The position numbers and the translations under genes are program-made. Positions 9,087 through 56,882 of a stretch of 64,000 nucleotides of DNA are shown one piece after another. The notes beneath the pieces were generated by a model that saw nothing but the letters and a program-made list of their open reading frames with translations, was not told the origin of the DNA and searched no databases. Source of the DNA: an uncultured bacterium (GTDB lineage Bacteria > Omnitrophota > Omnitrophia > Omnitrophales > Aquincolibacteriaceae). The stretch spans positions 26,130-90,129 of the forward strand of contig CAYLPP010000005.1 of the NCBI GenBank assembly GCA_964385615.1. Reading direction: 5' to 3'. Each line of letters starts with the position of its first letter. Position 1 is the first letter of the stretch.

Positions 9087-9090
9087 CAAT

Positions 9091-9130: not shown

Positions 9131-9150
9131 CTTTCTGAAGAATTCCTGAA

Positions 9151-10177: not shown

Positions 10178-10726
10178 ATGGATACCAAGGCGCTAGCCGT
10201 CCGTCCGCCTTCAGGCGTCGATGAAAAAAAGTGGTGCGCGACTCGTTGGTTCGCGGTTTACACGCGTTCCCGCCATGAAAAAATTGCCCAACGGGAGTTA
10301 AATAAAAAAGGCATTGAGACTTTTTTGCCTTTGCGCAAAGTTGTACGTCAATGGTCTGACCGCAAGAAAACTATCGAAGAACCCCTGTTTAAAGGTTATT
10401 TATTCGTTCATACGGCTCTTTCAGAACGCTGGACTGTGCTGAATTCAGTCGGCGTTGTCAGGTTTGTGACACAAGGCGCTGAACCCGCGGAAATTCCCGA
10501 AAAAGAGCTTTCCGCCATTCGTCTTTTTGTGGAAGAAAACATTCAAGTTGATCCATTCCCGTATCTCAAAGAAGGGGAACGGGTGTATGTGCGCTCCGGG
10601 CCGTTTAAAGGCGCGGAAGGTTTCGTAGTGCGTAAGGACAAGCATTGCCGTCTGATTATTTCACTCGATATGCTGATGCAGTCTGTGTCGGTGCTGATTG
10701 ATCAAGCGTGCGTTGAACCGGTCTGA
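10178..10726 (+). CDS. UpxY-family NusG-like transcription antiterminator (NGN + KOW)
   Basis: WFAVYTRSRHEKIAQRELNKKGIETFLPL and PLFKGYLFV form an NGN domain, and the C-terminal GERVYVRSGPFKGAEGFV is KOW-like. It sits at the head of the long co-directional glycan locus. Confidence 0.75.
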   Translation: MDTKALAVRPPSGVDEKKWCATRWFAVYTRSRHEKIAQRELNKKGIETFLPLRKVVRQWSDRKKTIEEPLFKGYLFVHTALSERWTVLNSVGVVRFVTQGAEPAEIPEKELSAIRLFVEENIQVDPFPYLKEGERVYVRSGPFKGAEGFVVRKDKHCRLIISLDMLMQSVSVLIDQACVEPV

Positions 10727-10812
10727 GTTTATGACCGCATAATTTCTAAGACCTTCGTAAGTCACGCCCTGTGACTGAGAGGGCGAAGCTGTGAGCAAGA
10801 GACCTCATTTCC

Positions 10813-11682
10813 TTGAAAAATAAAACACAAAATAGAGAAACTGCTGAAACGGTTATTGAAAGCCCTCAGCATTTCTTTTTGATTCCCTGGAGGGAAATCC
10901 TTCACTACAGGGATCTTCTATTTTTGTTTGTGCGCCGGGATTTTGTTTCGCGGTATAAGCAGACTATTTTGGGGCCTTTATGGTTCATCATTCAGCCCCT
11001 TGTGACGACTCTTGTCTTTACGATTGTTTTCGGACGTTTCACATCTATTTCCACCGGCCGGGTTCCGCAGGTGCTTTTTTATTTAAGCGGATTACTTGCT
11101 TGGGATTATTTCACGCTTTGTCTTTCAGGTACCGCGTATTGTTTAACTTCAAACATTCATTTATTTTCAAAAGTCTATTTCCCGCGCTTGATTGTTCCAA
11201 TTTCTCTTACGCTGTCGAATCTTCCCCGGTTAGGCCTCCAGCTTGTCATTTTTTCAGGGATTTATATTTACTGCGTAAAGCTGGGTGTGGTTCCCGTGTC
11301 TGTGCGTCCGACGGCTCTGATTTTTTTGCTGCCTGGACTTGTTTTTATGACGGCTCTGGCGGGATTAGGTCCTGGGCTTTGGGTTTCAGCGATGACGGTT
11401 AAATACCGCGATCTCCATCATCTGATTGGATTCTCAATTCAGCTTTGGATGTACGCAACGCCCGTGATTTACCCGCTGGAAACAGTTCCGGATTCCTGGA
11501 AATGGGTTCTTCTGCTCAACCCCATGACAGAGATACTCGAGTTGTACCGCCAGGCCTTTTTTGGAACCGGGGATGTCAGCTCCTTGGGTCTTGCGCTTTC
11601 CGGCGCAGTGATCACCGTTACGTTTTTAAGCGGACTGTATATGTTCAACCGGGTTCAGAGTACTTTTGTTGATACGATTTGA
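10813..11682 (+). CDS. wzm: ABC-2 type polysaccharide export permease (Wzm/TagG/KpsM-like)
   Basis: FVRRDFVSRYKQTILGPLWFIIQPL signature with six TM helices. Paralog of the C-terminal half of 29287..31032. Confidence 0.8.
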   Translation: MKNKTQNRETAETVIESPQHFFLIPWREILHYRDLLFLFVRRDFVSRYKQTILGPLWFIIQPLVTTLVFTIVFGRFTSISTGRVPQVLFYLSGLLAWDYFTLCLSGTAYCLTSNIHLFSKVYFPRLIVPISLTLSNLPRLGLQLVIFSGIYIYCVKLGVVPVSVRPTALIFLLPGLVFMTALAGLGPGLWVSAMTVKYRDLHHLIGFSIQLWMYATPVIYPLETVPDSWKWVLLLNPMTEILELYRQAFFGTGDVSSLGLALSGAVITVTFLSGLYMFNRVQSTFVDTI

Positions 11683-12866
11683 TGGCGGAGCCCTTAAAAT
11701 TCGTTTCAGATAAAACTCAGAAAATAGCGGAATTCGATGGGTTGAGAGGGATGGCGCTTTTAATGGTGGTGTTTCATCACTACAACCTTCATTCAAATTA
11801 CAGTTTGCCCATAAGTCAGTTTCTTCTCTCTGTCACAAATCTTTTTTCCATTGCCGTTGATTTCTTTTTTGCTTTATCAGGCTTTCTATTAACGAGAATT
11901 CTAATCGATCACCGCGAGTCCCCGAATCTTTTGAGGGTTTTTTTCATCCGCAGATTTTGCCGGATTGTTCCCGTTTATTATTTGCTGCTGATTTCCTATG
12001 CGCTTTTAATTCACACGAGTTTGGGTCGGATGGTTTTTTATCCCTCCGAGTTTTTGAAATGGGATCATTCCGTGAAATTTTACCTGTTATTTTTACAGAA
12101 TATTCCAATGGCCCTGCAGGGGTCTTTTATGCCGCCGTATTTGACGGTGACCTGGTCGTTGGCGGTTGAGGAACAGTTTTATCTTTTTCTCCCGTTTTTT
12201 ATTTTAATCGCCGGCTCAAAGAGACTTCCTTATGCTCTCGCGGGAATAATCACGGTTTCCGTTATTGCCCGGACGGCTATGATTGCTTTTAACCCATTTC
12301 ATTTTCCTAATCTTTGGTGGGCGGTTTATATTTCCCCTTTTTTAAGGATGGACACTCTTCTTTCAGGAGCCGTGGCCGCGGTTTTTACGCGGAAAGCAGG
12401 CTCGCTATCCTTTATTAGCAGAAATCAAAATTGGTTTTACGCTTATTTAGCCGGATTTTGGGCTTTGTTTTTTTTCTGGAGCTTCCGGCAGGATCAAATG
12501 ATTCTTTCCGTTGTGTCGACGGCTGGGTACTTCATTTTTTCCATAACGTCTTTTGTGATTATTTTATTAGTCGCTTCAGGGTCTTCGCCCGTCTGCGAAT
12601 TTCTGAGATTCCCGCTGTTCACGCATTTTGGCAAGTACTCTTACTTTATTTATCTTTTTCATATTCCAGCGCTGGGATTATTGCACGGACTGATTTTTCG
12701 GGTAAAAATTCCGCTAATCCAGGATTGGCCGACGATCGCGGTGACATTCCTTTCTTTTCTTATCGTATGGGCAGCCGCTCTTGTTTCGTGGAAACTGATC
12801 GAACGGCCGGCAATCCGTTTTGGGCATCGGTTCCAGTTTGAGCTGGGGAAGGCCGGTCTTTCGTGA
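11682..12866 (+). CDS. Acyltransferase family 3 membrane O-acyltransferase (OafA/YrhL-like)
   Basis: FDGLRGMALLMVVFHH N-terminal motif and about 10 TM helices. TGATG overlap with wzm. Confidence 0.75.
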   Translation: MAEPLKFVSDKTQKIAEFDGLRGMALLMVVFHHYNLHSNYSLPISQFLLSVTNLFSIAVDFFFALSGFLLTRILIDHRESPNLLRVFFIRRFCRIVPVYYLLLISYALLIHTSLGRMVFYPSEFLKWDHSVKFYLLFLQNIPMALQGSFMPPYLTVTWSLAVEEQFYLFLPFFILIAGSKRLPYALAGIITVSVIARTAMIAFNPFHFPNLWWAVYISPFLRMDTLLSGAVAAVFTRKAGSLSFISRNQNWFYAYLAGFWALFFFWSFRQDQMILSVVSTAGYFIFSITSFVIILLVASGSSPVCEFLRFPLFTHFGKYSYFIYLFHIPALGLLHGLIFRVKIPLIQDWPTIAVTFLSFLIVWAAALVSWKLIERPAIRFGHRFQFELGKAGLS

Positions 12867-14149
12867 AGCCCGTCGTTAAAGTTCAGAATGTTTCGAAGCT
12901 TTATTCAATCAAAGGAACTCAGACTAAAACTTTATCTGAGCTTTTTGGATGGAATCGCCGGCCTAGAACTTTCGCGCCTATTCAGCGTTCCGGGCAAATT
13001 GCTGAAGTTGGGCCTGAGCCCGGAACTTTTTGGGCGCTTAAAGATATTTCTTTTGAAGTTCAGCCGGGAGAAATTTTAGGAATTTTTGGAAAAAACGGGT
13101 CCGGAAAATCCACGTTGATGAAAATTCTTTCCCGCATTACGGCGCCGACTAAGGGCCGGGCTGTTTTGAAAGGACGCTTCATGTCTCTGCTTGAAGTCGG
13201 CACGGGATTTCATCCCGATTTGACCGGCCGCGAAAATATTTATCTCAACGCGGCCATTTTGGGGATGAGAAAATCAGAAGTGGATCTTAAGCTTGATGAA
13301 ATCATTGATTTTTCCCAGATTGGGTCATTTATCGATACGCCGGTTAAATTTTATTCCAGCGGGATGTATCTGAGGCTTGCCTTCAGCGTGGCGGCGCATC
13401 TTGAAACGGAAATTCTTATATTGGATGAAGTTTTATCCATTGGCGACCTCGATTTTCAGCAGAAATGCCTTCGGAGAATCCTGGATATTTCCCGCCAGGG
13501 GAAAACGATTATTTTTGTAAGCCACAGCATGCGGCATATTACCGACATTTGTTCGCGCGCCATCTATATATCCGGCGGTAAAGCCGCTGATGAAGGTGAT
13601 CCCGAAGATCTTGTTGAAAAGTATATTAGGGCGATTCAAAAAAACTCTACCGGCTCAACAGGCCCGATGGAGCATTTCACGCAATCCTCATTTTTCAAGA
13701 TTGAGAAAGCGGTAATTAAAAATTCGGATGGGGAAAATTCCGCGAATCTTTTATTTAAAGAACCCTTTACCGTTGATGTTGAGGTCAGCGTTTCTCAAAG
13801 TTTAAAAAATGTACGCATCGGCGCGGGTTTTGCCACCCTCAGCGAGACCTGGATCGGCCGGGTGCATCATCCTTCTGCCGAAAAGGAAAAACTCGATCTT
13901 GAGCCGGGCCGTTATCTGATTTCGTTTTCATTCTCAAATTGTTTATGGCCAGGTACGTATTACTTGGGGGTGGGGGCTCATCAAGCCGCGGATAAAGCAT
14001 CTGTGAGTCAAACCCTTGATTACATTCCAAGAGCCATGCGCTTTGCGGTTGAAGACATAGCGGGCAACTCCTCAATTCCTTCTCCGGCCCCGCATAATCA
14101 TGGGCTGGTTGCTTTGGAAGCTCAGAGCGGTTTAAAAAGGCTGAAATGA
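12863..14149 (+). CDS. wzt: Polysaccharide ABC exporter ATP-binding protein with a C-terminal carbohydrate-binding domain (Wzt/TagH-like)
   Basis: Walker A GKNGSGKST, signature YSSGM, Walker B ILILDE, and a roughly 170-aa C-terminal extension (…PGTYYLGVGAHQ…). GTGA overlap with the preceding gene. Confidence 0.85.
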   Translation: MKPVVKVQNVSKLYSIKGTQTKTLSELFGWNRRPRTFAPIQRSGQIAEVGPEPGTFWALKDISFEVQPGEILGIFGKNGSGKSTLMKILSRITAPTKGRAVLKGRFMSLLEVGTGFHPDLTGRENIYLNAAILGMRKSEVDLKLDEIIDFSQIGSFIDTPVKFYSSGMYLRLAFSVAAHLETEILILDEVLSIGDLDFQQKCLRRILDISRQGKTIIFVSHSMRHITDICSRAIYISGGKAADEGDPEDLVEKYIRAIQKNSTGSTGPMEHFTQSSFFKIEKAVIKNSDGENSANLLFKEPFTVDVEVSVSQSLKNVRIGAGFATLSETWIGRVHHPSAEKEKLDLEPGRYLISFSFSNCLWPGTYYLGVGAHQAADKASVSQTLDYIPRAMRFAVEDIAGNSSIPSPAPHNHGLVALEAQSGLKRLK

Positions 14150-14886
14150 GTTTGTTTTCCTTTTTTTCAAAGCAAAAAAAAACGGGGATTCAAAACGGCC
14201 GTTTTGAAAACTGGTTCCATGGCCTTTATGATCTCCCGGTAAAACTTCAATACACCGCCTGGCGTTACGGGCATTTAACGCACGATGAAATGCTCCTGCA
14301 GGTGGCCGCGCTGACACAATATTTAAAGCCTGGAAATGTTTTTGAGTTTGGAACTTTTGACGGGCGCACGACAGTAAATATTGCCTTAAACCTGGAAAAA
14401 AGCTCGAAGATTTACTCTCTGGATCTGCCTGACGATGTCTCTAGGGAGAATTTTCTGGAAAAAGAAAAAGATTATATGCAGCCCCAAATGACGAGGGCTC
14501 TTTTTTCTGAAAAGAAAATCGAATCTGAAGTCTTGAATAAAATCGAGCTTTTGCGCGCGGATTCAAAAGCTTTTGATTTTAGCCGCTTCTATACAAATAT
14601 CGATATGGTCCTCGTTGACGGCGGACATGACCGGATCACCGTAACGTCGGATTCCCTGAACGCTTTCCGGATGCTTCGGCCCGGAGGGGTTATTTTATGG
14701 GATGATTACAATGATTATTGGCCGGATGTTTTTGAGTTTATTAATAAGCTCTCGACCTTATTGCCGTTGTTGAGGGACGAGAGAACAGGGCTTGTGGCTT
14801 ATAAAAGTTCAAACGGCAAGAATATTGACTGGCGGGAAATAAATAAAATTCTAAAACCGGATGACCGGTTTCCGGAAAAATCATGA
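14146..14886 (+). CDS. Class I SAM-dependent methyltransferase (TylF/MycF-like O-methyltransferase fold)
   Basis: FEFGTFDGRTTVNIA and VLVDGGHD motifs. ATGA overlap with wzt. Confidence 0.65.
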   Translation: MSLFSFFSKQKKTGIQNGRFENWFHGLYDLPVKLQYTAWRYGHLTHDEMLLQVAALTQYLKPGNVFEFGTFDGRTTVNIALNLEKSSKIYSLDLPDDVSRENFLEKEKDYMQPQMTRALFSEKKIESEVLNKIELLRADSKAFDFSRFYTNIDMVLVDGGHDRITVTSDSLNAFRMLRPGGVILWDDYNDYWPDVFEFINKLSTLLPLLRDERTGLVAYKSSNGKNIDWREINKILKPDDRFPEKS

Positions 14887-15974
14887 AATCATCCAAGAGA
14901 AACATTTTGATTACCGGAGGATGCGGATTTGTGGGCCGGCATCTTCTCGCGAGGCTCAGCCGGGAAGCCGCGTCAGAGTTTTGGGTTGTGGATGACTTGA
15001 GCACGGGAAAACATCCTGAAACTTGGGAGTTTTTAAAATTATCCGCGATAACTTCCAAAAATTATCCCGGCGCAGAAACGTTTGAAATTTCGGGTACAAG
15101 TCACTCCTTGGTTTTTATCCGGGCGGACTTCATGTCAGTCACTTTGTCGGAATTAGGACGCCAGCCGGGTCTTGGAATTCCGCGGCTTCCTAAATTTGAT
15201 GAAATTTATCATTTGGCTTCGGTGGTCGGCGGGCGCGCTATGATCGACGGGGATCCGCTGATGGTCGGCATCGATTTAGGAATCGACGCCTGTTTTTTTC
15301 TCTGGGCTTCGAAAGTCAATAAGCCCGGGAGAATTTTATACGCCTCTTCCAGCGCGGCTTATCCCGTTTTCAGACAGACGGCGGATAAGGCACAGCCCCT
15401 GCGGGAAAGCGAAATTGATTTTTCAAAAGGTGTTTTCCAGCCGGACTACACCTACGGCTGGAGCAAGTTGACTGGGGAATATCTTGCCGGAATCGCCGCC
15501 GGAAAATATGGTTTAAAAGTAGCGGTGGTCCGGCCTTTTTCGGGATACGGTGAAGATCAGGACCTGACCTATCCGGTTCCCGCGATCGCGCTTCGTGTGG
15601 CCGCGCGGCAAAATCCGGTAAAAATATGGGGAAGCGGTGAGCAAAGCCGGGATTTTGTTTACATTGGAGATTGCGCGGAAGCCTGTGTCCGTGCCTGCCG
15701 AGGCATTGAGGACGGATCCGCGGTTAATATCGGCTCCGGGGTTTTGACATCTTTTAATCAGCTTGCAAGGCTGATGATGAAATTAGAAGGTTACCAGGGA
15801 AATATTCTCGGGGATGAAAACAAACCTGTCGGAGTTGCCAAGCGCTGCTGCGATCCAAAGCGGGTGCGGGAAAAACTTCAATGGGAGCCGGCTGTCACCC
15901 TGGAAGAAGGGATGGCGGGAGTTTTAAAAACGGCGCATCAGAGATTAAATTCGGGAATAAAAATTCCGGAATGA
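14883..15974 (+). CDS. NAD-dependent nucleotide-sugar epimerase/dehydratase (extended SDR)
   Basis: N-terminal ILITGGCGFVGRHL Rossmann motif and a YxxxK region (YGWSK). Confidence 0.7.
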   Translation: MKSSKRNILITGGCGFVGRHLLARLSREAASEFWVVDDLSTGKHPETWEFLKLSAITSKNYPGAETFEISGTSHSLVFIRADFMSVTLSELGRQPGLGIPRLPKFDEIYHLASVVGGRAMIDGDPLMVGIDLGIDACFFLWASKVNKPGRILYASSSAAYPVFRQTADKAQPLRESEIDFSKGVFQPDYTYGWSKLTGEYLAGIAAGKYGLKVAVVRPFSGYGEDQDLTYPVPAIALRVAARQNPVKIWGSGEQSRDFVYIGDCAEACVRACRGIEDGSAVNIGSGVLTSFNQLARLMMKLEGYQGNILGDENKPVGVAKRCCDPKRVREKLQWEPAVTLEEGMAGVLKTAHQRLNSGIKIPE

Positions 15975-17080
15975 TAAAAAAAGAAAAATCTTTCGCCGTT
16001 GTCACGACAACGATCCGTATTCCGGAACTCTTGAGACGTTACGCTCAAGATGCCCGTGATTTTAAACGGAAAATCGAGCAATTTGTGATTGCCGGGGATC
16101 GAAAAACCCCCGATGGTGTCCGTGATTTTTGCGCGCGGCTTTCTGAAGAATTTCAAATTCCTTTTGTTTATCTTTCCGCGCAGGATCAAGATAATTATTT
16201 AAAAACCCGGCCGCGGCTTAAAGAATTTCTTCCCTGGAATTGCATTCAGCGCCGGAATGCCGCCGTGCTTTACGCGTATGACAAAGGTGAAGCCGACATT
16301 ATCGTGACGCTGGATGATGATAATTTTATCTCCCATTCTGATTATTTCGGATGTCACGCCCATATCGGAGACGAGGATGAGGTTGAAGCTGTGAGCTCTT
16401 CGGCTGGATGGTGGAACATTTGTGAAATGCTGGAAGAGAGTAAGGGCCGGTATTTTTATCACAGGGGATACCCGCTTTCAAAACGCTGGCCAAGGGATGA
16501 AAAAATCAAAGTTCAAAAAATCCGGGCTTGCGCGGTGGTTAACGCCGGGCTCTGGCTTGATGATCCGGACGTGGATGCTCTGACCCGCTTGTCTTTTCCC
16601 GTCCGGGCTTCGCGCAGAAGCTCCCTTTTTAGAAACCGCGTAGCCTGCGCTCCGGGAACCTGGTCTCCGTTCAATTCACAAAATACAGCATTGGCCCGCG
16701 AAGTGATTCCGGCCTACTTTTTATTTCCGTATATCGGCCGGTATGATGATATTTGGGCGAGCTATGTCGTTCGGGCGATCGCGGATTATTTGGGAGACGT
16801 AGTGACTTATGGAACTCCGGTGGTCCGTCAAAAGCGTAACCCGCATGATTATTTTAAAGATTTTGACGACGAGCGTTTCGGTTTAACGCACAACGACGTT
16901 TTTTTGAAAGCGCTGACTGCCTGCCGGTTTCAAGGGAAAACGTACCGCGATTGTTTTGCCGAAATTGCCGAGCAGTTTCCCGCCCGGATCCATGAAGCTT
17001 GCAGGTCTTTAAAAAAAGACGCGGCGATTTTCGAGAAAGTCGTTGAAGCCATGAAAATTTGGAAAGAAACGTTTCGATGA
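15971..17080 (+). CDS. Reversibly-glycosylated-polypeptide (RGP/GT75) family protein, UDP-arabinopyranose mutase-like
   Basis: Blocks match plant RGP/UAM: VVTTTIR, TLDDDNF (DDD motif), HRGYPLS, GLWLDDPDVDALTRL, IGRYDDIWASYVVRAIADYLG. ATGA overlap with the SDR gene. The longer track ORF from 15881 runs through the SDR 3' end. Confidence 0.6.
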   Translation: MIKKEKSFAVVTTTIRIPELLRRYAQDARDFKRKIEQFVIAGDRKTPDGVRDFCARLSEEFQIPFVYLSAQDQDNYLKTRPRLKEFLPWNCIQRRNAAVLYAYDKGEADIIVTLDDDNFISHSDYFGCHAHIGDEDEVEAVSSSAGWWNICEMLEESKGRYFYHRGYPLSKRWPRDEKIKVQKIRACAVVNAGLWLDDPDVDALTRLSFPVRASRRSSLFRNRVACAPGTWSPFNSQNTALAREVIPAYFLFPYIGRYDDIWASYVVRAIADYLGDVVTYGTPVVRQKRNPHDYFKDFDDERFGLTHNDVFLKALTACRFQGKTYRDCFAEIAEQFPARIHEACRSLKKDAAIFEKVVEAMKIWKETFR

Positions 17081-17101
17081 AAAACATTTCCTTTTAAAAT
17101 C

Positions 17102-17995
17102 ATGAGAGAAATGCCTTTAATTTCCTTTGTCATTCCGACGTTTAACCGGGCGCTATTTCTTGAAATCGTGCTTAAGGATCTGATCGCGGAGCGCCGTCTT
17201 TATTATCCCAATATGGAAATTATCGTGGTCGACGGAGGTTCCAAAGACGGCACGGCGGAAATGCTTAAAAATTATGAGAGTGAATTATCTTGCTGGGTTT
17301 CAGAGCCGGATAAAGGGCCTGGAGACGCTTTCAAAAAAGGGATTCAGAAAGCGAAGGGGGATTTTATCCGCTACATGTCTGATGACGACCGCATTATTCC
17401 GGGGTGCACCCGGAAAATGATGGAAATCATGTTGAGCCGTCCGGATTTCGATATCGTGGGCGGGGGAGTTAAATCGGTGTATTTGTCCAAGTCGGGCGAA
17501 TTGATTCCTTGCCTGGATTTTACTCCGGCCGGAGATGTCGCTTTATCCAAAGCGGCCGCGCCTGATTTGAACGGTTTTATCGTGCCGGAAGCTTGTTTGT
17601 TTCGGAAGAAACTTTTCAGCGAAATCGGTTACTGGAAGCCGAACATGATGGCTTGTGACGCTGAGTTTTTTCTCCGGACTTTAAAAAAAGGCCGGAAAAT
17701 TTTTATGGCGGATGAAGTTTATCTCCATAAATATTGGCACGACGATTCCACGGTTCTCAAAAGATTGGGCCGTATGCGGACAAGCATCTTTGAAGCGATT
17801 GCTCAAAACGCGGGCGTTATACCGGCCTCAGCTTATTATTACCGCGTTGTGATCGGGCCATGGCTTGAACCCAAAAGAAAATGGATGAAGGAGCATATTT
17901 ACCGCCCGCTTTTGATTTTAGCGGCAAAACCGTTTCACAAGCTGGGACTCCATCCCGTGCGCTTTCTGGAACGTATCAAGAAAAAGCGCTCATGA
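17102..17995 (+). CDS. Glycosyltransferase family 2
   Basis: SFVIPTFNRALFL … VVDGGSKDGT … DDD. GT-A fold N-terminal signature. Confidence 0.8.
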   Translation: MREMPLISFVIPTFNRALFLEIVLKDLIAERRLYYPNMEIIVVDGGSKDGTAEMLKNYESELSCWVSEPDKGPGDAFKKGIQKAKGDFIRYMSDDDRIIPGCTRKMMEIMLSRPDFDIVGGGVKSVYLSKSGELIPCLDFTPAGDVALSKAAAPDLNGFIVPEACLFRKKLFSEIGYWKPNMMACDAEFFLRTLKKGRKIFMADEVYLHKYWHDDSTVLKRLGRMRTSIFEAIAQNAGVIPASAYYYRVVIGPWLEPKRKWMKEHIYRPLLILAAKPFHKLGLHPVRFLERIKKKRS

Positions 17996-18891: not shown

Positions 18892-18904
18892 TAAAGCGGT
18901 TAGA

Positions 18905-34183: not shown

Positions 34184-34186
34184 CCG

Positions 34187-38127: not shown

Positions 38128-38190
38128 AAAGAAGGACTATTTGATTAGGCTTTTCGAGCCGATATACAGAGTTTACAAGGCGGATTTTTC

Positions 38191-45958: not shown

Positions 45959-45962
45959 AGAT

Positions 45963-47681: not shown

Positions 47682-47685
47682 GCTC

Positions 47686-48402: not shown

Positions 48403-48493
48403 AACCTTTTTAAAAATAACGTCAGCGGTCTTTATTTTTTATTCAGTTCTAGCGCTTTTTCTAGGTAAATTTCTGGAGATACCGACGGATACG

Positions 48494-49591: not shown

Positions 49592-50768
49592 TATTTGCGT
49601 GATCGGCGGATGCGGGCATGTCGGCCTGCCGCTAGCTCTTTGTTTCGCCCAGGAAGGAAAGCGTGTCGCTATTGTTGACGTAAACGAATCAGCGGTTCGA
49701 AAAATCCGGAGCGGAAAAATGCCGTTTAAGGATGAGGGGGGTGATGAAATTCTGCCCCGTGTTCTCCGGTCTAAAAAGTTAACTGTCGATACTGATCCCC
49801 GGCTGATTTCTGAAAGTGAAAATATTATTTTTGTGCTGGGCACTCCCGTTTCAACCCATCTTTATCCCTCTTACACGCAGTTTTACGAAACGCTTCAGCG
49901 GTACATGAAATATTTTAAAAAAGAACAGCTTATCGTTTTCCGGAGCACGCTGTTCCCGGGAAGCATGAAGACAATCCGGCAAATGTTCGCGGACGCCGGG
50001 CTTCGCGTTTCTCTGGCGTTCTGCCCTGAACGCGTGGCCGAAGGCCTTGCCATCCGTGAAATTTACGAACTCCCGCAAATCGTTTCCGCGTTTGACGCGA
50101 AAAGCCGCCGCCGCGCGAAGGCGCTCTTCTCCGTTTTTACCAAGGAACTGGTAGAGCTTGAACCTTTGGAAGCAGAGCTTGGAAAACTGTTTACTAATGT
50201 GTGGCGTTACATGAAATTCGCGATCGCCAATCAGTTTTACATGATCGCTAATGACAGCCGTCTGGACTTTTATAAGATTTACAACGCGATCGTCGGCGGG
50301 TATCCGCGGCTCAAGGATATGCCCCGCGCCGGATTTGCCGCCGGGCCCTGCCTGTTTAAAGACACCATGCAGCTGGCTTCTTTTACGGACAACAGGCTGT
50401 TTTTGGGGCACGCGGCCATGCTGATTAATGAAGGCTTGCCTAGCTATTTGATTACTCAGCTCAGAAAGCGGTTCTCTCTCGAGAAAAAGCGGGTGGGCAT
50501 TTTGGGGATGGCATTTAAAGCGGAATCAGACGACAGCCGGGAATCGCTGTCGTTCAAGCTTTTGAATATTCTCCAAAAGGACTGCCGGGCTGTTTACGTC
50601 ACGGACCCCTTCGTGAAAGATCCTAGAATTCTCCCGGTTCAAGAAGTCGTTAAGAAGAGCGACATTCTGATTATTGGCGCACCGCACCGCGAGTATAAAA
50701 AACTGAATCTTTCGAAAAAAACGGTAATTGACGTTTGGAACCTTTACGGCAAGGGAGGGCTGGTCTGA
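49578..50768 (+). CDS. Nucleotide-sugar dehydrogenase (UDP-glucose/GDP-mannose dehydrogenase family)
   Basis: N-terminal ICVIGGCGHVGLPLA Rossmann motif with the family's three-domain length (~396 aa). Confidence 0.75.
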   Translation: MKKFDICVIGGCGHVGLPLALCFAQEGKRVAIVDVNESAVRKIRSGKMPFKDEGGDEILPRVLRSKKLTVDTDPRLISESENIIFVLGTPVSTHLYPSYTQFYETLQRYMKYFKKEQLIVFRSTLFPGSMKTIRQMFADAGLRVSLAFCPERVAEGLAIREIYELPQIVSAFDAKSRRRAKALFSVFTKELVELEPLEAELGKLFTNVWRYMKFAIANQFYMIANDSRLDFYKIYNAIVGGYPRLKDMPRAGFAAGPCLFKDTMQLASFTDNRLFLGHAAMLINEGLPSYLITQLRKRFSLEKKRVGILGMAFKAESDDSRESLSFKLLNILQKDCRAVYVTDPFVKDPRILPVQEVVKKSDILIIGAPHREYKKLNLSKKTVIDVWNLYGKGGLV

Positions 50769-51793
50769 TGAAAGTTCTGGTGACCGGCGCGGCCGGATTC
50801 GTGATGGGCTATCTGACCGAAGAATTGCTTCGAGCCGGGCATGAGGTTGTCGGCGTGGATAATTTCTCAAAGTACGGGAGGGTCGCCCGAAGTTACGATC
50901 AGCATCCTAAATATCAATTTGTTCAGGGAGACTGTAAAGATGTTGAGCTGATGAAGCGTTTGGCTGAGGGGTGTGATCAGGTTGTCGCCGGAGCCGCGAT
51001 GATTGGGGGGATTTCCTATTTTCACCGCTTCGCGTATGACTTGCTGGCGGAAAACGAAAGGATTCTCGCGGCCACTTTTGACGGCGCCATCTCTGCTTTT
51101 AAAGCGGGAAAGCTTTCGAGGATTATCGTGATCTCTTCTTCAATGGTGTTTGAAAATACGCCTCACTTCCCGTCGCGCGAAGGCGATCAGCTTAAATCGC
51201 CTCCGCCTTCTTCAACTTATGGGTTTCAAAAACTCGCGAGCGAGTTTTTTGCCAAAGGGGCATGGGAGCAGTATCAGCTTCCTTACACGATTTTAAGACC
51301 GTTCAATTGTGTCGGCATCGGAGAGAAAAAAGCCGTTCAGGAAGGCGGACGGATTGAAAAAGGGAATCTGGACCTCGCGCTCAGCCATGTGGTTCCGGAT
51401 TTGATCGTGAAAGTTCTCAAAGGGCAGGACCCTCTGGAGATCTTGGGTGATGGAACCCAGGTGCGCCATTACACCTACGGAGGCGATCTTGCCCGCGGGA
51501 TCCGCCTTGCCATGGAAAGCTCAAAAGCGGTGAATGAAGATTTTAATCTTTCCACGCCGGTTTCCACCACCGTTCTTCAGCTCGCGGAAATGATTTGGAA
51601 AAAAATCAACAGCCCTGGAAAACCTTTCCGGTATGTCAGCGCGGAAAAATTCGCTTACGATGTGCAGAAAAGAGTTCCTGACACTGAAAAAGCAAAAAAA
51701 ATTCTAGGTTTCAGCACTCAGACATCGCTTGATGAAATGCTCGACATTGTCATCGCGTGGATTAAAGACCAGCTCAAGCAGGGTACTTTCTGA
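50768..51793 (+). CDS. NAD-dependent epimerase/dehydratase (extended SDR; UDP-glucuronate epimerase/decarboxylase-type candidate)
   Basis: MKVLVTGAAGFVMGYL … YGFQK (YxxxK). TGATG overlap with the dehydrogenase. The track ORF from 50735 runs through the dehydrogenase 3' end. Confidence 0.7.
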   Translation: MKVLVTGAAGFVMGYLTEELLRAGHEVVGVDNFSKYGRVARSYDQHPKYQFVQGDCKDVELMKRLAEGCDQVVAGAAMIGGISYFHRFAYDLLAENERILAATFDGAISAFKAGKLSRIIVISSSMVFENTPHFPSREGDQLKSPPPSSTYGFQKLASEFFAKGAWEQYQLPYTILRPFNCVGIGEKKAVQEGGRIEKGNLDLALSHVVPDLIVKVLKGQDPLEILGDGTQVRHYTYGGDLARGIRLAMESSKAVNEDFNLSTPVSTTVLQLAEMIWKKINSPGKPFRYVSAEKFAYDVQKRVPDTEKAKKILGFSTQTSLDEMLDIVIAWIKDQLKQGTF

Positions 51794-51816
51794 ACAGCTT
51801 CCCAAAAATATCCATC

Positions 51817-52506
51817 GTGATTCCCGTCTACAATGAAGGCGGAAATATTCCGGCTTTGTTTACGGAGCTGAAAAAAAGTATCGGAAGCGGAAGCGAAATC
51901 CTGATTTGCTATGATTTTGAAGAAGACAACACGCTTCCTGAAGCCCGGAAATACCAGGCGGATTTCCCGAAGCTCAGATTTGTTAAGAATCAATTTGGAT
52001 CAGGATGTCTGGGCGCCATTAAATCCGGGTTTAAAGAAGCTTCCGGACCGGCAGTGCTTGTCATGATGGCTGATCTCTCCGACGATTTGAGTTCCGTAAG
52101 CCCCATGATGAATCTGTTTGAAGAGGGATGCGCGGTTGTGGCCGCTTCCCGCTATACGGCCGGAGGGCGTCAAATCGGAGGACCTCCCGTTAAAAAATTC
52201 CTTTCGAAAATTGCCGGGCTCTCGCTTCATTACTTTACCGGCTTGCCTTCGGTAGACCCCACGAATAATTTCAAACTCTACGCCAAATCTTTTTTGGAAA
52301 AGACGCGGATAGAAAGTGACGGCGGTTTTGAGCTGGGCCTGGAATTGACCGTGAAAGCTTATTTAAGCGGATCGAAAGTCGGAGAATGCCCGACCGTTTG
52401 GCGTGACCGGACGGCTGGAGTATCGAGGTTTCAATTCAAGAAATGGCTTCCGAAATATCTTCGATGGTACTTGTACGCAGTGAAGGGGCGCTTTTTCAAA
52501 AAATAA
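51817..52506 (+). CDS. Glycosyltransferase family 2, polyprenyl-phosphate sugar synthase-like
   Basis: (KIS)IVIPVYNEGGNIPALF … ICYDFEEDNT. The frame is open upstream of GTG 51817, so the true start is probably a few codons earlier (non-ATG). Confidence 0.6.
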   Translation: MIPVYNEGGNIPALFTELKKSIGSGSEILICYDFEEDNTLPEARKYQADFPKLRFVKNQFGSGCLGAIKSGFKEASGPAVLVMMADLSDDLSSVSPMMNLFEEGCAVVAASRYTAGGRQIGGPPVKKFLSKIAGLSLHYFTGLPSVDPTNNFKLYAKSFLEKTRIESDGGFELGLELTVKAYLSGSKVGECPTVWRDRTAGVSRFQFKKWLPKYLRWYLYAVKGRFFKK

Positions 52507-52507
52507 A

Positions 52508-54448
52508 ATGCAATCTACAGTGCTAAAAAATGAAATGCCCACGCTTTTTCGCTGGAGCTGGTTGGCGGTTTTTGGAATAGCCGTCGGCGCCGCGGTTTTT
52601 TTCCGTGCTTTTCCTTCCTTGAGCGGCGATGAATATAACTCTCTGATCGGGGCGGGAGATCTCAGGCTGAATCTGCACGCGGTCGGTTATTTTTCGCAGC
52701 TGAAAATTTGGAGCTGGATCAGCGGGTCTGATTTATGGCTTCGCGGGTTATCTTTAATTTGGGCTGCCGCGGGGCTTTGGGCTTTTATGAAACTGGGAGA
52801 AAAAACGGAACTTCCGCGTCCGGTGATTCTTAACAGCGGTTTATTGCTGGCGGTAAACGCTTTTTTTCTCCAGTACGCTTTTCAGGTACGGTTTTACGCG
52901 TTATTCGCGGCCGCGAGCACCCTCTGGTTCGCTCTGCTGGCCGGAATCGTTGTCCGCCGTGAAAAGGTTAATTGGGTTTTGCTTTTATTTTCGGCGCTTC
53001 TTCTGGTGTCTTCTCATTTATTTGGGTGGATGGTCATCGCTATGGGAGGTATTCTGGTTTTTTGGTTCCGCTGCACCAGAACGACAAAGATAATCTTACT
53101 CGCGTCTATTTTTATTCTTCTCGCGTTATTTTACACCAAACCAGTTCAGGATATTTTGACCCGCCTGGTTTATAAAACGACACTTCCGCTTGAACAAATT
53201 CCGGCTGCGGGTCCCAGAGGGTTGACCACGGCTATGATTTTTAAATTCCCTCTGACTTTTTTCTTTTTCGCTTTAGGCGAAAGAGTTTACCCTCTTTCCT
53301 GGATTTCGGCGGCTGGGGTTCCTATTATAGGTACGGCGTTCATTTTGGGCTGTATCCGTCTGAGACATTTTCCTTTTCTGAGTTCAATCGCGGTTCTTTG
53401 CCTGGCGAGTATCGCTGCGTTATTTCTGATTTTTGATCCGCTGGCGCCGCCTTCACTTCAGGGTGCCGCGGCCCGTTACGTCATTTACGCGCTTCCTTTT
53501 TTCGTGATGATTTGCGCGCTGGGCGCGCATGAGCGCCCGGTTCTTTGTTTTTTGGTGTGGGGTATTACGCTTTTTGCTTTTGCTTCATTCACAAAACCTT
53601 TCTGGAGTTCCAGTCAGATCGATTTAATGGATTGGGAAAAACAGTTTAGGTCCGATATTGTTGACCCTGCGAAAACATGCGTGGTTTCGGATGGAAGAGC
53701 CCAAGGAGCCGTGACCCGTTATCTTCCCGCCGGCGTACGTCTTGCGGATAATCCCGAAGCTTGCCTGGGCTTTGACCGCGTTTTAATCGCTTCGGCGAAT
53801 TTTGATTTAAAAGCCATCCGGTATCTGGATTCTCAAAACGCGAAACTTGCCTCGGATTACCAACTTGTTCGAAACACCAACGCTTTTCCCAATCAATTAA
53901 CAGTTTATGAGAAAAAAGCTTCAAAAAATTTAACCTTAGATTTTGCACCGGACCGGCTGGGTCTTCCGGAACAAGACCTTCGTTTTCCTCTTGTGATTCG
54001 AAACGGCCGGTTACTGAATGGTTTTGTCCGGCTGGATGAATTCCGATCCGCGTACGAATTTCAGTCCGTTCCAAAGGGAAAATTCCGTCTTTTAATCAAT
54101 TATCGGGAACTGGGCCTCGTGACTCCGGGCGAGCCGGTCGCGGCTGTCCGGTGGCACAGCCTCGACGGAACTTTTACTGAAACCCCTCTGCGCGCCGGTA
54201 TTGAAACGGCTGCCTGGGACGGCCATTGCGGCAGCTGCGCTGAAGAAGCAGGCTGGACAAAACGGCTGCATTTACTTGGAGCCCAAAGTTACCCCGGAGC
54301 CTACCGCCAGTACCGGGCTGGAATTTGGTCTGTGGAAATGGTTTCGCCGTCTTCCGCGGTTAAAGCAGAGCTAGTGAAACTCCATCCAAATGCCGTTATT
54401 TACTTTTGGGGAAATGAACCTTCAAGCCCGGAAAAAACCAATGCTTAA
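52508..54448 (+). CDS. GT-C-like polytopic membrane protein with a C-terminal soluble domain (putative periplasmic-acting glycosyltransferase)
   Basis: About 11 TM helices in the first 380 aa. The first loop has SLSGDEYNSLIGAGDL (DE motif). C-terminal domain of about 260 aa. Confidence 0.45.
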   Translation: MQSTVLKNEMPTLFRWSWLAVFGIAVGAAVFFRAFPSLSGDEYNSLIGAGDLRLNLHAVGYFSQLKIWSWISGSDLWLRGLSLIWAAAGLWAFMKLGEKTELPRPVILNSGLLLAVNAFFLQYAFQVRFYALFAAASTLWFALLAGIVVRREKVNWVLLLFSALLLVSSHLFGWMVIAMGGILVFWFRCTRTTKIILLASIFILLALFYTKPVQDILTRLVYKTTLPLEQIPAAGPRGLTTAMIFKFPLTFFFFALGERVYPLSWISAAGVPIIGTAFILGCIRLRHFPFLSSIAVLCLASIAALFLIFDPLAPPSLQGAAARYVIYALPFFVMICALGAHERPVLCFLVWGITLFAFASFTKPFWSSSQIDLMDWEKQFRSDIVDPAKTCVVSDGRAQGAVTRYLPAGVRLADNPEACLGFDRVLIASANFDLKAIRYLDSQNAKLASDYQLVRNTNAFPNQLTVYEKKASKNLTLDFAPDRLGLPEQDLRFPLVIRNGRLLNGFVRLDEFRSAYEFQSVPKGKFRLLINYRELGLVTPGEPVAAVRWHSLDGTFTETPLRAGIETAAWDGHCGSCAEEAGWTKRLHLLGAQSYPGAYRQYRAGIWSVEMVSPSSAVKAELVKLHPNAVIYFWGNEPSSPEKTNA

Positions 54449-56882
54449 AAGACCTCTGGATATTTTATTGAGTTTGTTTTTAATTGTTCTTGTCGCGCCT
54501 CTTTTTCTGCTGATTTCCATCCTGATCCGTCTGGATTCCCCGGGGCCGGTTATTTTTAAACAGAAAAGAACCGGTTTGAACGGAACGGAATTTACCCTGT
54601 TTAAATTCCGCACAATGATTGAAGACGCTCCAAGCATGGGGCCGGTGATTACCGCTAAAAATGATCCGCGCGTGACCCAAATCGGCCGTGTTCTCCGCTG
54701 GACCAAACTGGATGAACTGCCTCAGCTGCTCAATGTGCTCAAAGGCGATATGAGCATGGTCGGCCCCAGGCCTGAAGTTCCCCAAATGACGGCGCTTTAT
54801 AAAGGCGAACAGACGAAAGTATTTTCCGTCCGGCCCGGCATTATGGGATCAAGTCAAATTAACAACCGTGATGAAGAGCAGATGCTGATAGAAGGGGATC
54901 AGGTTGAGGATTTTTACGTGCAGAAAATTCTGCCGGATAAAATTAAAAACGATCTGACCTATATTCATAATCCCGACCCTTTCAAGGATCTTAAGATTCT
55001 TTTTGGCGGAGGAGTCACGCTTTTATTCAGCTCGCTTAAACTTCCTTATATCTTCGAGAGTAAACGCCGGGTTCTTTTCCTCCTTTTCGACCTGCTGATT
55101 TCCGGCCTGTCTTTCTGGTTCGGTTTTCTTCTGCGTTTTGAAGGCCGGGTTCCGCACGCCGATGCCGTCATTTTTCAAACCCTTCTTCCCCTGATGCTGA
55201 TTGTGCGCGCTCCGTGTTTTATTTCATTCGGGCTTTATCAAACGCTTTGGCAGTATCTGGGCATTCAGGAATTGCTTTCGATTATCCGGGCCGTTATCGT
55301 CGGGTCTTTTATTTTTCCGGTTATTCCGTTTTTGTTCCAGATGGATTTCCCGCCGCGGTCGGTTTTAATCACCGACGGACTGCTTTTGATTACCTGTCTG
55401 GGCGGTTCGCGCGTTATTTTCAAGTTAACCGCTGAAAGATTGAGGCGCCCGATTCTAGGCTCCAAGAAAAACGCTTTGATTATTGGAGCGGAAGACACCG
55501 GGGAATTTCTGGTGCGTGAATTTATTAAAAACCCGGCGGCCGGTTACCGGCCTGTCGCGTTTCTGGACAATGATGCCGGTAAACTGGGAGTCCGGATTCA
55601 CGGCGTGAAAGTCATGGGAAAAATTTCCCAGCTCAGCCAGGTGGTGCGGGTCCGTAAAGTTGACGAAGTGATTATCGCGCTTTCCCAGGCTTCGGCGAAT
55701 GAAATCCGGGAAATTGTTAAGACCTGCGGAGAGCTGAAACTTCCTTCTCGAATCGTACCGCCGGCTTCGGCGCTTCTCTCACCGCAGATTTTGCCCTTGA
55801 GGCTCCGGCCGGTTGATGTTTCGGATCTTTTGGGCCGTGAATTGGTGCAGGCGGATCTTCCCGGAATTCAGAATCTCCTGAGGGGGAAGAAAGTCCTGGT
55901 CACAGGCGCGGGCGGTTCTATCGGCTCTGAGTTGAGCAAAATTATTTTTCAAAATCATCCCGAAGAGTTGATCTTGGTCGACAACTCCGAAAGCAGTTTG
56001 TATGACATTGAAATGGAGCTCAAGGCGAAACCGCTGGGCACGAATATCGTGACTTATCTGGCCAGCGTGGCTGACGGCGAAACGTTGGAAAAAATTTTCA
56101 AACGCCATAAACCGCAGATTGTTTATCACGCCGCGGCTTACAAGCATGTGCCCCTTATGGAAATTCATTTTGCGCAGGCGGTGAAGAACAATATTTGGGG
56201 GACGAAGATTGTCGCGGATCTGGCCAAGAAAAACGGGGCTGAAAGCTTTGTGCTGATTTCAACGGATAAAGCGATTAATCCGACAAGCATTATGGGCGCC
56301 ACCAAAAGAGTCTGCGAGATTTACGCCCAAAGTTTAAAGGGCGGAAAAACCCGCTTTCTCGCGGTGCGGTTCGGCAACGTTTTCAACAGCAAAGGCAGTG
56401 TGGTTCCTCTGTTTAGAAAGCAGATTGAAATGGGCGGGCCGGTCACGGTGACGGACCCCGAAGTCACGCGTTATTTCATGGATGTTTCCGAGGCTGTTTT
56501 TTTAATTCTGCAAGCCACGATTTTAGGATCCGATTCTGAAATTTTTGTTCTGGAAATGGGTCAACCGGTCAAAATTGCCGATCTCGCGCGGGATTTGATC
56601 CGTTTAATGGGGGTGCCTTCAGACCGGATGCCTGTCAGATTTACGGGTTTAAGGCCGGGTGAAAAACTTCATGAAGAACTGCAGTTGGGAAGTGAAACGG
56701 CCAGCGCGACCTCGCATCCCAAAATTAAAATCTGGAAACCCGGAAAAAATCAGGGTATTGATATTCATTCGGGAATCGAACATTTGCTCAAGCTTGTGGA
56801 GCAAGGCGCTTCCCGCGACGCGGTTATTCAGGAGTTCAAAAAGATAGTGCCTGAATACGCGCCTTGGAACCCTCAGATTTAA
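54441..56882 (+). CDS. Fusion protein: PglC-like monotopic phosphoglycosyltransferase (Bac_transf) + PglF/WbpM/CapD-like UDP-HexNAc 4,6-dehydratase
   Basis: N-terminal LDILLSLFLIVLVAPLFLLI re-entrant helix, DELPQL, and GDMSMVGPRPE PGT motifs. Then four TM helices and a CapD-type SDR domain (VLVTGAGGSIGSEL … YHAAAYKHV … STDKAINP). Start ATG 54441 (MLKRPLD). Confidence 0.8.
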   Translation: MLKRPLDILLSLFLIVLVAPLFLLISILIRLDSPGPVIFKQKRTGLNGTEFTLFKFRTMIEDAPSMGPVITAKNDPRVTQIGRVLRWTKLDELPQLLNVLKGDMSMVGPRPEVPQMTALYKGEQTKVFSVRPGIMGSSQINNRDEEQMLIEGDQVEDFYVQKILPDKIKNDLTYIHNPDPFKDLKILFGGGVTLLFSSLKLPYIFESKRRVLFLLFDLLISGLSFWFGFLLRFEGRVPHADAVIFQTLLPLMLIVRAPCFISFGLYQTLWQYLGIQELLSIIRAVIVGSFIFPVIPFLFQMDFPPRSVLITDGLLLITCLGGSRVIFKLTAERLRRPILGSKKNALIIGAEDTGEFLVREFIKNPAAGYRPVAFLDNDAGKLGVRIHGVKVMGKISQLSQVVRVRKVDEVIIALSQASANEIREIVKTCGELKLPSRIVPPASALLSPQILPLRLRPVDVSDLLGRELVQADLPGIQNLLRGKKVLVTGAGGSIGSELSKIIFQNHPEELILVDNSESSLYDIEMELKAKPLGTNIVTYLASVADGETLEKIFKRHKPQIVYHAAAYKHVPLMEIHFAQAVKNNIWGTKIVADLAKKNGAESFVLISTDKAINPTSIMGATKRVCEIYAQSLKGGKTRFLAVRFGNVFNSKGSVVPLFRKQIEMGGPVTVTDPEVTRYFMDVSEAVFLILQATILGSDSEIFVLEMGQPVKIADLARDLIRLMGVPSDRMPVRFTGLRPGEKLHEELQLGSETASATSHPKIKIWKPGKNQGIDIHSGIEHLLKLVEQGASRDAVIQEFKKIVPEYAPWNPQI

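Follow-up and report, generated by a model that had tools for sequence, protein, structure and literature searches.

What is built by some 47 kb of consecutive glycan genes, and are these genes transcribed together? The question was raised by positions 10178-56882 of the DNA stretch presented above (contig CAYLPP010000005.1 of an uncultured bacterium of the phylum Omnitrophota; its full 64,000 nucleotides (nt) are referred to here as the window), where genes of glycan synthesis follow one another on the + strand from a nusG-like gene (g01) to a phosphoglycosyltransferase (PGT) fusion gene (g41; gene numbers as in Table 1, contigs of other genomes designated by L numbers). The reading favored here was that of a hypervariable surface-glycan locus, probably expressed as a single transcript led by an antiterminator and directing several glycans rather than one. 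A probability of roughly 0.68 was attributed to this reading as a whole.

A coupled run of genes on one strand

From a listing of open reading frames (ORFs) of at least 100 aa, with starts chosen afterwards, 41 ORFs were retained that tile 10178-56882. All were on the + strand, as announced in the original prediction, whose figure of about 45 consecutive genes was a slight overcount. Coding sequence occupied 99.3 % of the 46,705-base span, which left no space for extra genes. Neighboring genes overlapped at 29 of the 40 junctions, by four nt in 16 cases (ATGA, GTGA or TTGA), eight nt in six, one nt in three and other lengths in the remaining four. Gaps of 0-23 nt were encountered at eight junctions and gaps longer than 25 nt at three (10727-10812, 86 nt; 38128-38190, 63 nt; 48403-48493, 91 nt). 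The number and coordinates of the long gaps were those foreseen, but the third one is most likely coding. Positions 48371-48493 were open in the frame of g36 and encoded a transmembrane helix aligning with the N-terminus of a homolog in contig L085. Since this open upstream stretch contained no ATG, GTG or TTG codon, g36 likely starts upstream of the GTG at 48494 with a non-canonical codon, either ATT at 48398 (one base of which also belongs to the TAG stop of g35) or ATA at 48416.

The single-strand run of glycan genes was not due to chance, because the genes flanking 10178-56882 changed strand and two other contigs of the same sample, from sequencing run SRR16481187, matched two stretches of the region exactly. 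The same contigs bear on whether an assembly or binning chimera joined unrelated glycan fragments, a suspicion invited by a metagenome-assembled source without close relative. This was considered extremely improbable: the SRR16481187 contigs are independent, both flanks were syntenic with single contigs of relatives (one of which spans both), reading frames were continuous and overlapping across junctions, and GC content was uniform (47.4 % in the locus, 49 % in the flanks).

Gene content

Gene families were assigned by Pfam searches of all 41 products combined with a fold search, and NCBIfam models and solved-structure relatives were considered for selected products. Every glycosyltransferase (GT) assignment was supported by the hidden Markov model searches, and the predicted tally was reproduced: 12 GT4, nine GT2, one GT75-like, three GT-C and one PGT, accompanied by three methyltransferases and two Wzm/Wzt exporters. 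The announced Wzy_C protein, aminotransferase (DegT), acetyltransferase (Hexapep), UDP-sugar dehydrogenase and two epimerases were also recovered by Pfam, which further uncovered an Acyl_transf_3 protein, a FAD oxidoreductase-like protein, a GT4-deacetylase fusion and a GT2-Wzm fusion. None of the transferases tested reached an NCBIfam equivalog cut-off; specific linkages can therefore not be named.

A conserved site with variable content

Comparison with related genomes, proposed earlier as a check, revealed a variable locus, the same chromosomal site carrying different glycan genes. The left flank was common to contigs L089, L090, L092 and L093 (UpxY 64-88 % identical to g01; two of them labelled Omnitrophica), each of which displayed part or all of the order PepA, RsmB, GDPD (opposite strand), SpoU, phosphoribosyltransferase (PRTase), secreted protein (opposite strand), a helix-turn-helix (HTH) protein of family HTH_17 of ~70 aa, and UpxY; the genes after UpxY differed in each. 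Relative to L089, identity amounted to 61-93 % for flank proteins, 88 % for UpxY, 60 % for Wzm and 45 % for Wzt, and most later genes had no ortholog.

The right flank led to Omnitrophota contig JACPXM010000020.1 (L004), where MutY and GCV_T genes were converged upon by an unrelated glycan locus that also ended in a PGT. Its UpxY gene started at 9417 and its PGT gene ended at 47310 on the same strand, so that both flanks were found on one contig, 37.9 kb apart; this contig, one of the four with the common left flank and seen at the ends of the interval, has a locus of ~38 kb at the same site. The nearest MutY proteins among species representatives belonged to metagenome-assembled genomes (MAGs) of Candidatus Omnitrophota (45-51 % identity), with the MutY-GCV_T adjacency kept. 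Together with the extensive flank synteny and the names of the g01 homologs, these MutY proteins point to a lineage of Omnitrophota that has no close sequenced relative. Polysaccharide cassettes figure among the hypervariable regions that a preprint lists for complete Omnitrophota genomes (bioRxiv 10.64898/2026.06.07.730766). The bacterium carries, at a conserved site between PRTase/HTH_17/UpxY and GCV_T/MutY, a hypervariable surface-glycan locus, probably its main one, which in view of the synteny of relatives and of these hypervariable cassettes is the local version of a lineage-wide variable site.

A simple integrated island was considered and rejected: no tRNA gene was present in the window, GC was only 1.7-1.9 points below that of the flanks, and g41 and the convergent GCV_T-family gene (- strand) overlapped by 47 nt at their 3' ends (56836-56882), which left space neither for a 3' attachment site nor for an intergenic terminator.

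Individual relatives displayed peculiarities at or near this site. Contig L092 (3921-7098) carried two HTH_17 genes with DegT and secreted-protein genes between them, before UpxY; it is labelled Verrucomicrobiae at NCBI, yet its flank synteny matched Omnitrophota contigs. In L093 (12598-20197), an ABC_membrane-type exporter and three giant multi-domain GT4/methyltransferase proteins (699-1002 aa) replaced many single-domain transferases. In L003, an HTH_17 homolog of 67 % identity (11123-11401) was convergent on MutY, its direct neighbor, neither GCV_T nor a glycan locus intervening; taking this as an empty or rearranged site was judged too weak, as the contig ends 160 nt past the homolog.

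Lead genes and a 28-nt element at the 5' edge

Gene g01, located directly 5' of 40 same-strand genes, was a NusG paralog of the UpxY family, a placement also observed in five relatives (L086, L089, L090, L092 and L093). It remained below the cut-offs of the RfaH, LoaP and NusG models (91.3 versus 144.5 for RfaH, TIGR01955), and its homologs bear the name UpxY family transcription antiterminator [Candidatus Omnitrophica bacterium]. The excisionase-family HTH gene before it is probably the first gene of the unit; an ortholog of 69-72 aa directly preceded UpxY in the same five relatives. Upstream of both, the block around the promoter-like site was conserved without change in L086 and almost without change in L089, and its layout was kept in L090, while nearby non-coding sequence diverged. 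A strong 12-bp terminator hairpin (9049-9077) followed the preceding PRTase gene.

The gap after g01 harbored a 28-nt element, CCCTGTGACTGAGAGGGCGAAGCTGTGA, present in a single copy in the window. It was 100 % identical in L086 (UpxY 92 % identical), a contig whose genes shared ~76 % DNA identity with those of the window and whose remaining spacer was unalignable. Divergence between L086 and the window became complete right after the element, where the variable region thus has its 5' breakpoint. Variants were found in the spacer between UpxY and the first following gene of every relative examined, in surroundings that do not align, and the core TG.GAC.GA..GGGCGAAGCT.T was invariant in eight of eight sequences (alignment A4). 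Only two of 241 million metagenome records displayed the exact 28-mer: in L088 (52.5 % GC) it stood immediately 5' of a NusG-like ORF only 40 % identical to g01, and in L087 (38 % GC) eight nt 5' of a methyltransferase-like ORF. In all cases, its place was the 5' border of such a gene set. In most spacers, a semi-conserved CTTCGTAGGT-like box preceded the element by 5-25 nt.

The element is composed, in order, of a hairpin CCCT-N9-AGGG, a GCGAAGC mini-hairpin and TGTG. Sequences GCGNAGC and GCGNNAGC form a class of stable mini-hairpin DNAs of which GCGAAGC is the prototype (PMC13037366), and UpxY and RfaH sites combine pause hairpins with non-template-strand hairpins having GCG..AGC stems (PMC11685472). 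By this analogy, the element is a candidate recruitment site for the UpxY-like factor. Rfam contained no family for it in the window or in L086-L088, its sequence was not found in the literature searched, and the Escherichia coli ops consensus GGCGGTAGnnTG had no match in the window beyond chance. An RNA-structure reading of the whole 86-nt spacer was abandoned, its stability not being significantly above that of shuffled sequences (z -1.5).

Three side observations concern these surroundings. The L086 spacer (2130-2160) carried a second, partial copy of the motif (AAGGGCGAAGG; A4 columns ~35-47) upstream of the full element. Two strong hairpins, resembling a bidirectional terminator, were located at 9049-9131 between the PRTase gene and a convergent secreted-protein gene, Rfam yielding only a chance microRNA match (E ~0.7). 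The latter gene (9151-9645, - strand) encodes a small protein found beside HTH/UpxY in all relatives examined; its score with TIGR04073 (exosortase-system-associated) was 44.8 bits, below the threshold of 50.

A mosaic of three modules

Three parts can be distinguished in what appears to be a mosaic locus. Since internal paralogs were at most 38 % identical, an origin by recent tandem duplication of its transferases was rejected. Module 1 (10813-29290) comprised Wzm, an acyltransferase, Wzt with Wzt_C, a methyltransferase, an epimerase, the GT75-like protein, the FAD enzyme and ten GT2/GT4 transferases. Module 2 (29287-34948) comprised the GT2-Wzm fusion, a second Wzt, the GT4-deacetylase fusion and a methyltransferase. 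The two Wzm/Wzt pairs (g02/g04 and g19/g20) were both complete and only 36-38 % identical to each other. The trio deacetylase, GT2-Wzm and Wzt recurred in the unrelated contig L083 (1345-5576); full-length GT2-Wzm fusions also occurred elsewhere (P0029, P0069) and were uncommon. The Wzm half of g19 was unusually well conserved, with 60-75 % identity to stand-alone permeases of ~320 aa, the few organism-named matches being MAGs of Chloroflexota and Acidobacteriota. In L086, a stand-alone Wzm directly followed UpxY and was 64 % identical to the g19 permease and 32 % to g02; since its UpxY is directly followed by a Wzm of the second type, module 1 is absent or replaced in that relative. Other matches displayed the g19-type permease fused to Bac_transf, DegT or Epimerase_2 domains.

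Module 3 (34941-56882) recurred in the unrelated contigs L084 and L085, where orthologs of g23-g33, g36, g40 and the PGT half of g41 were encountered in similar order with 24-61 % identity. Orthologs of g23, g24 and g25 followed one another in L085 (32 %, 61 % and 45 %; 43 % for the g25 ortholog of L084), and identities ranged over 31-53 % for g29-g31 and 38-46 % for g32-g33. Genes g34, g35, g37, g38 and g39 had no detectable ortholog in either contig, L085 having its own PMT_2 gene at another position, and no Wzm/Wzt pair was present in the ~22 kb seen of L084 or L085. The PglC-like and PglF-like proteins were separate neighbors in L084 (20773-21974) and fused in the window; g41 is thus a gene fusion within a conserved cassette.

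Gene g40 belongs to a rare family of membrane proteins of 630-670 aa, for which 5.8 billion proteins yielded 15 homologs and Pfam has no model. Its structural model displayed the GT-C fold, including the multi-helix membrane domain and the acidic residues in the first outer loop; an invariant G-D-E-Y motif followed the first helix (alignment A1). In both contexts examined, homologs were located within glycan loci (L084, 10001-11974; L085, 10001-11902), in L084 directly beside a Wzy_C gene.

Table 1. Features of the locus and of its 5' end, in window coordinates
Feature	Coordinates	Strand	Evidence
Promoter-like site: -35 TTGACT, 17-nt spacer, -10 TACATT	9805..9833	+	consensus scan; putative function
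Excisionase-family HTH (HTH_17), 70 aa	9895..10107	+	Pfam; NCBIfam TIGR01764 63.8 bits (cut-off 28.8)
g01 UpxY-family NusG paralog, NGN + KOW	10178..10726	+	Pfam NusG; NCBIfam NF033644 antiterm_UpxY 153.9 bits (cut-off 100)
28-nt conserved element CCCTGTGACTGAGAGGGCGAAGCTGTGA, candidate ops-like recruitment/pause site	10767..10794	+	within 86-nt gap after g01
g02 Wzm permease 1	10813..11682	+	ABC2_membrane
g03 membrane acyltransferase	11679..12866	+	Acyl_transf_3
g04 Wzt ATPase 1, C-terminal glycan-binding domain	12863..14149	+	ABC_tran + Wzt_C 55.8 bits (cut-off 30.4)
g05 methyltransferase	14146..14886	+	Methyltransf_24
g06 NDP-sugar epimerase/reductase	14883..15974	+	Epimerase + GDP_Man_Dehyd; NCBIfam sub-threshold only
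g07 RGP/GT75-like	15971..17080	+	PF03214 RGP 46.9 bits (cut-off 23.8); no NCBIfam match
g08, g09 two GT2	17102..18891	+	Glycos_transf_2
g10-g13 four GT4	18905..23714	+	Glycos_transf_1 / Glyco_trans_1_4
g14 FAD-dependent oxidoreductase-like	23698..25014	+	weak Amino_oxidase; PRK07208-type match sub-threshold
g15 GT2	25007..25894	+	Glycos_transf_2
g16-g18 three GT4	25891..29290	+	Glycos_transf_1
g19 GT2-Wzm fusion, permease 2	29287..31032	+	Glycos_transf_2 residues 3-144, ABC2_membrane 336-542
g20 Wzt ATPase 2	31029..32243	+	ABC_tran; Wzt_C 25.1 bits (below 30.4 cut-off)
g21 GT4-polysaccharide deacetylase fusion	32240..34183	+	Glycos_transf_1 + Polysacc_deac_1
g22 S-adenosylmethionine methyltransferase	34187..34948	+	Methyltransf_23/25/11
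g23 GT4, g24 GT2, g25 GT4: recurrent cassette begins	34941..38127	+	Pfam
g26 Wzy_C membrane protein (ligase, polymerase or O-oligosaccharyltransferase family)	38191..39624	+	Wzy_C 34.3 bits (cut-off 31.7)
g27 DegT aminotransferase, g28 hexapeptide acetyltransferase	39617..41325	+	Pfam
g29 GT2, g30 GT4, g31 GT4	41318..44244	+	Pfam
g32 methyltransferase, g33 GT2	44241..45958	+	Pfam
g34 GT-C, ArnT-like	45963..47681	+	PMT_2 63.1 bits
g35 GT2, probable polyprenyl-phosphate sugar synthase	47686..48402	+	Glycos_transf_2
g36 small GT-C-like membrane protein	48398..49591 (start probable)	+	PMT_2 25.5 bits, just below 26.1 cut-off
g37 UDP-sugar 6-dehydrogenase, g38 epimerase	49578..51793	+	Pfam
g39 GT2	51817..52506	+	Glycos_transf_2
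g40 rare uncharacterised GT-C family member	52508..54448	+	
g41 PglC-like PGT fused to PglF-like UDP-GlcNAc 4,6-dehydratase	54441..56882	+	Bac_transf, CoA_binding_3, Polysacc_synt_2

One transcript or several operons

Judged from sequence, 10178-56882 would form one transcriptional unit, a view to which the UpxY-family lead gene, the conserved promoter-like block and ops-like element, the translational coupling and the lack of terminator excess all contribute. Terminator-like sites inside the locus did not exceed chance, which is compatible with one long transcript without proving it.

It was thought unlikely that the run consists of several independent same-strand operons, with internal promoters (at 38128-38190 or within coding sequence) driving modules 2 and 3 and the UpxY-like factor acting on the first few genes only. 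Such a layout would agree with the separate occurrence of the modules elsewhere, each of which may have brought its own promoter, with a weak TTGATT/TATACA pair read by eye in the 63-nt spacer before the Wzy_C gene, and with promoter-like matches scattered within the locus at chance level. However, the overlapping junctions include the module borders g18/g19 (four nt) and g22/g23 (eight nt), so that a separate regulation would find no room between genes at these borders; no terminator-like site stood out within the locus; and it is with long operons that specialised NusG paralogs are typically associated (PMC7819879).

Under the favored single-transcript reading, transcription would start at the conserved sigma-70-like promoter around 9805-9833 and read through the excisionase-type HTH gene and then the UpxY-family gene. 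As the polymerase crosses 10767-10794, the non-template strand would form the GCGAAGC mini-hairpin, followed by TGTG; RNA polymerase would pause at the element and, by analogy with RfaH/ops and with UpxY/opsX of Bacteroides, load the UpxY-like factor. The loaded polymerase would resist termination and proceed through the 40 tightly coupled genes to 56882. A bolder proposal, advanced tentatively and at somewhat less than even odds, is that the core GAC.GA..GGGCGAAGCT.T is the dedicated recruitment site of a widespread non-Bacteroidota UpxY-like clade and at the same time a fixed 5' recombination boundary for cassette exchange, licensing one ~47-kb transcript that would co-express three glycan systems, one of them with a new GT-C family (g40).

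Several glycans rather than one

The original prediction had offered either one long or complex heteropolymer or several glycoconjugates. The second option was favored here and the first disfavored, given the two divergent Wzm/Wzt pairs, the recurrence of module 3 alone and the layout of L086. Wzm/Wzt pairs export finished lipid-linked chains; the Wzt_C domain usually reads a cap at the chain end, and methyltransferases are the usual cappers. That all 41 genes make one very large or complex heteropolymer by a single pathway appeared very unlikely: a single PGT, a single Wzy_C protein and a tight coupling suggestive of stoichiometric co-expression would suit it, but the locus harbored two complete exporter pairs, its modules were found independently in other genomes, and three methyltransferases together with a cap-binding Wzt domain in one exporter only fit separate chain terminations.

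Several glycans would thus be produced. Module 1 would provide a Wzm/Wzt exporter with a glycan-cap-binding domain in its ATPase, together with an O-acyltransferase, a methyltransferase and ~11 transferases; module 2 would provide the GT2-Wzm/Wzt/GT4-deacetylase set. Gene g07 encodes a bacterial protein in the plant-type RGP/GT75 (UDP-arabinopyranose mutase) family and, along with the FAD enzyme g14, may point to formation of a furanose or an unusual sugar. In module 3, the PglC-PglF fusion, the DegT protein and the acetyltransferase would put a 4-amino-4,6-dideoxy-HexNAc-type sugar on undecaprenyl phosphate, GT2 and GT4 enzymes would extend it, and the Wzy_C protein and three GT-C proteins would finish or transfer the glycan at the outer face of the inner membrane, with a polyprenyl-phosphate sugar supplied by g35. 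The final acceptor could be lipid A-core or protein.

Solved-structure relatives suggest such a starter for module 3. The N-terminal part of g41 matched PglC (E 1e-29) better than WbaP (1e-23), and its C-terminal part matched Campylobacter jejuni PglF (E 6e-80). The best relatives of g37 were Cap5O and UDP-ManNAcA dehydrogenase, and no solved structure matched g26. Gene g35 is placed between two GT-C genes and its best NCBIfam matches were AglJ, ArnC, PpgS and dolichyl-P hexose transferase, all below cut-offs; position and matches would fit periplasmic-face decoration from a lipid-phosphate sugar. Parts of a three-component glycosylation system were thereby present (g35 and the GT-C proteins g34, g36 and g40), with no GtrA_DPMS_TM protein in the window and one in L084.

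A serious rival, of rather low probability, is that the 34941-56882 cassette or the whole locus serves protein glycosylation: a lipid-linked oligosaccharide started by PglC/PglF would be moved en bloc to protein (e.g. S-layer or pilin) by the Wzy_C protein, acting as a PglL-type enzyme, or by g40, acting like PglB/AglB. The likeness of g41 to the Campylobacter protein-glycosylation enzymes speaks for it, as does the presence of O-oligosaccharyltransferases in the Wzy_C family; a long non-repeating oligosaccharide would also agree with the large number of single transferases and the lack of any sign that repeat units are polymerised. On the other hand, the locus holds no acceptor protein gene, Wzm/Wzt exporters with Wzt_C classically export O-polysaccharide or S-layer glycan, and the locus of a relative includes a GT9 heptosyltransferase-family gene, which points to lipopolysaccharide (LPS).

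Some observations weigh against the favored reading of an antiterminated transcript for several surface glycans. None of the gene families encountered in the locus corresponded to a UpxZ-like partner: the gene after g01 encodes Wzm and the one before it the excisionase-family HTH. The element lies downstream of the UpxY gene, unlike the upstream Bacteroides sites, and can therefore not enhance transcription of that gene itself. Counts of promoter-like and terminator-like sites equalled shuffled expectation in the three segments scanned, and so neither support nor exclude internal signals; the spacer at 38128-38190 has space for an internal promoter. As to products, the starter sugar of module 3 is uncertain because g27 was nearer to ArnB and perosamine synthase, its best solved relatives, than to PglE, and g28 resembled generic acetyltransferases. 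Wzy_C was the only component of the Wzx/Wzy pathway; Pfam detected no Wzx (Polysacc_synt), MurJ, Wzz, GtrA-type flippase or outer-membrane export protein among the 41 products, which leaves module 3 without an evident route across the membrane.

Comparison with known systems

Capsule loci of Bacteroides typically measure 20-30 kb and export their products by the Wzx/Wzy route; the present locus is about twice as long and equipped with ABC transporters. The UpxY capsule operons of that genus were the closest system (Chatzidaki-Livanis 2009, as cited in PMC7819879; Saba et al. 2024, PMC11685472). Shared features are a long one-strand polysaccharide operon that begins with its own, locus-specific UpxY-family NusG paralog, a short leader element pairing a hairpin with a non-template hairpin of the GCG..AGC type, and variable glycan genes downstream; opsX sites consist of an RNA pause hairpin and a non-template-strand hairpin with GCG..AGC stems (PMC11685472). 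In contrast to Bacteroides, the locus belongs to another phylum, was the only one of its kind seen (versus eight), displayed no invertible promoter or UpxZ, has an excisionase-type HTH gene before UpxY, and carries its candidate site after the UpxY gene.

In the E. coli RfaH/ops system, a NusG paralog is likewise recruited at paused polymerase by a short non-template hairpin, and LPS and capsule operons carry the element at their 5' edge. The ops sequence GGCGGTAGCGTG contains GCGGTAGC, of the GCGNNAGC mini-hairpin class, whereas the window displays GCGAAGC, of the GCGNAGC class, followed by TGTG. Unlike the present system, with its sub-threshold RfaH score and no ops consensus, RfaH is encoded away from its targets. 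ABC-dependent O-polysaccharide pathways (E. coli O8/O9a, Klebsiella O12) share with the locus Wzm and Wzt with Wzt_C, possible capping methyltransferases and a Wzy_C protein (WaaL-type), but differ from it by the two exporter pairs found here (one GT2-fused), the far greater number of transferases and the lack of a WecA-type initiator in the locus. Campylobacter pgl resembles module 3 in its PglC and PglF, the best solved relatives of g41, and in the aminotransferase and acetyltransferase of the same cassette; here, however, PglC and PglF are fused, the aminotransferase is nearer to ArnB/Per than to PglE, and the locus has neither PglK nor, by sequence, PglB.

The density of transferases had been presented as well beyond that of a typical O-antigen or capsule locus. 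The size of the locus is large by enterobacterial standards, but not unprecedented: rfb loci of Leptospira reach 121,402 bp and have a median of about 99.5 kb in pathogens (PMC4758666), and the relative mentioned above has a 38-kb locus at the same site. The present locus shares with Leptospira rfb and the Omnitrophota polysaccharide cassettes a very large size, a fixed position and strain-variable content; the Leptospira loci exceed its 47 kb, while the one documented Omnitrophota example measures 25 kb and was described without regulatory anatomy (bioRxiv 10.64898/2026.06.07.730766). Operons of variable surface-glycan genes headed by a specialised NusG paralog were already known. New here are the lineage, the HTH-UpxY-element layout, the conservation of the element across distant genomes, three systems in one coupled run and an unrecognised GT-C family.

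Implications

Members of Omnitrophota are mostly uncultured and described as host-dependent or episymbiotic (bioRxiv 10.64898/2026.06.07.730766), and their surface presumably contacts the host. About 47 kb would represent ~2 % of a genome of ~2 Mb, a size assumed from one 2.1-Mb chromosome in the same preprint. Being replaced wholesale between relatives, the locus appears to be a main target of diversifying selection (e.g. by phages or hosts). The 28-nt element offers a testable handle on antitermination by NusG paralogs outside Bacteroides and enterobacteria, and could serve as a marker by which such loci are located in metagenomes and their limits set. Candidates for biochemistry are the g40 family and the recurrent Wzy_C/PglC-PglF cassette, which represent a glycan pathway as yet uncharacterised.

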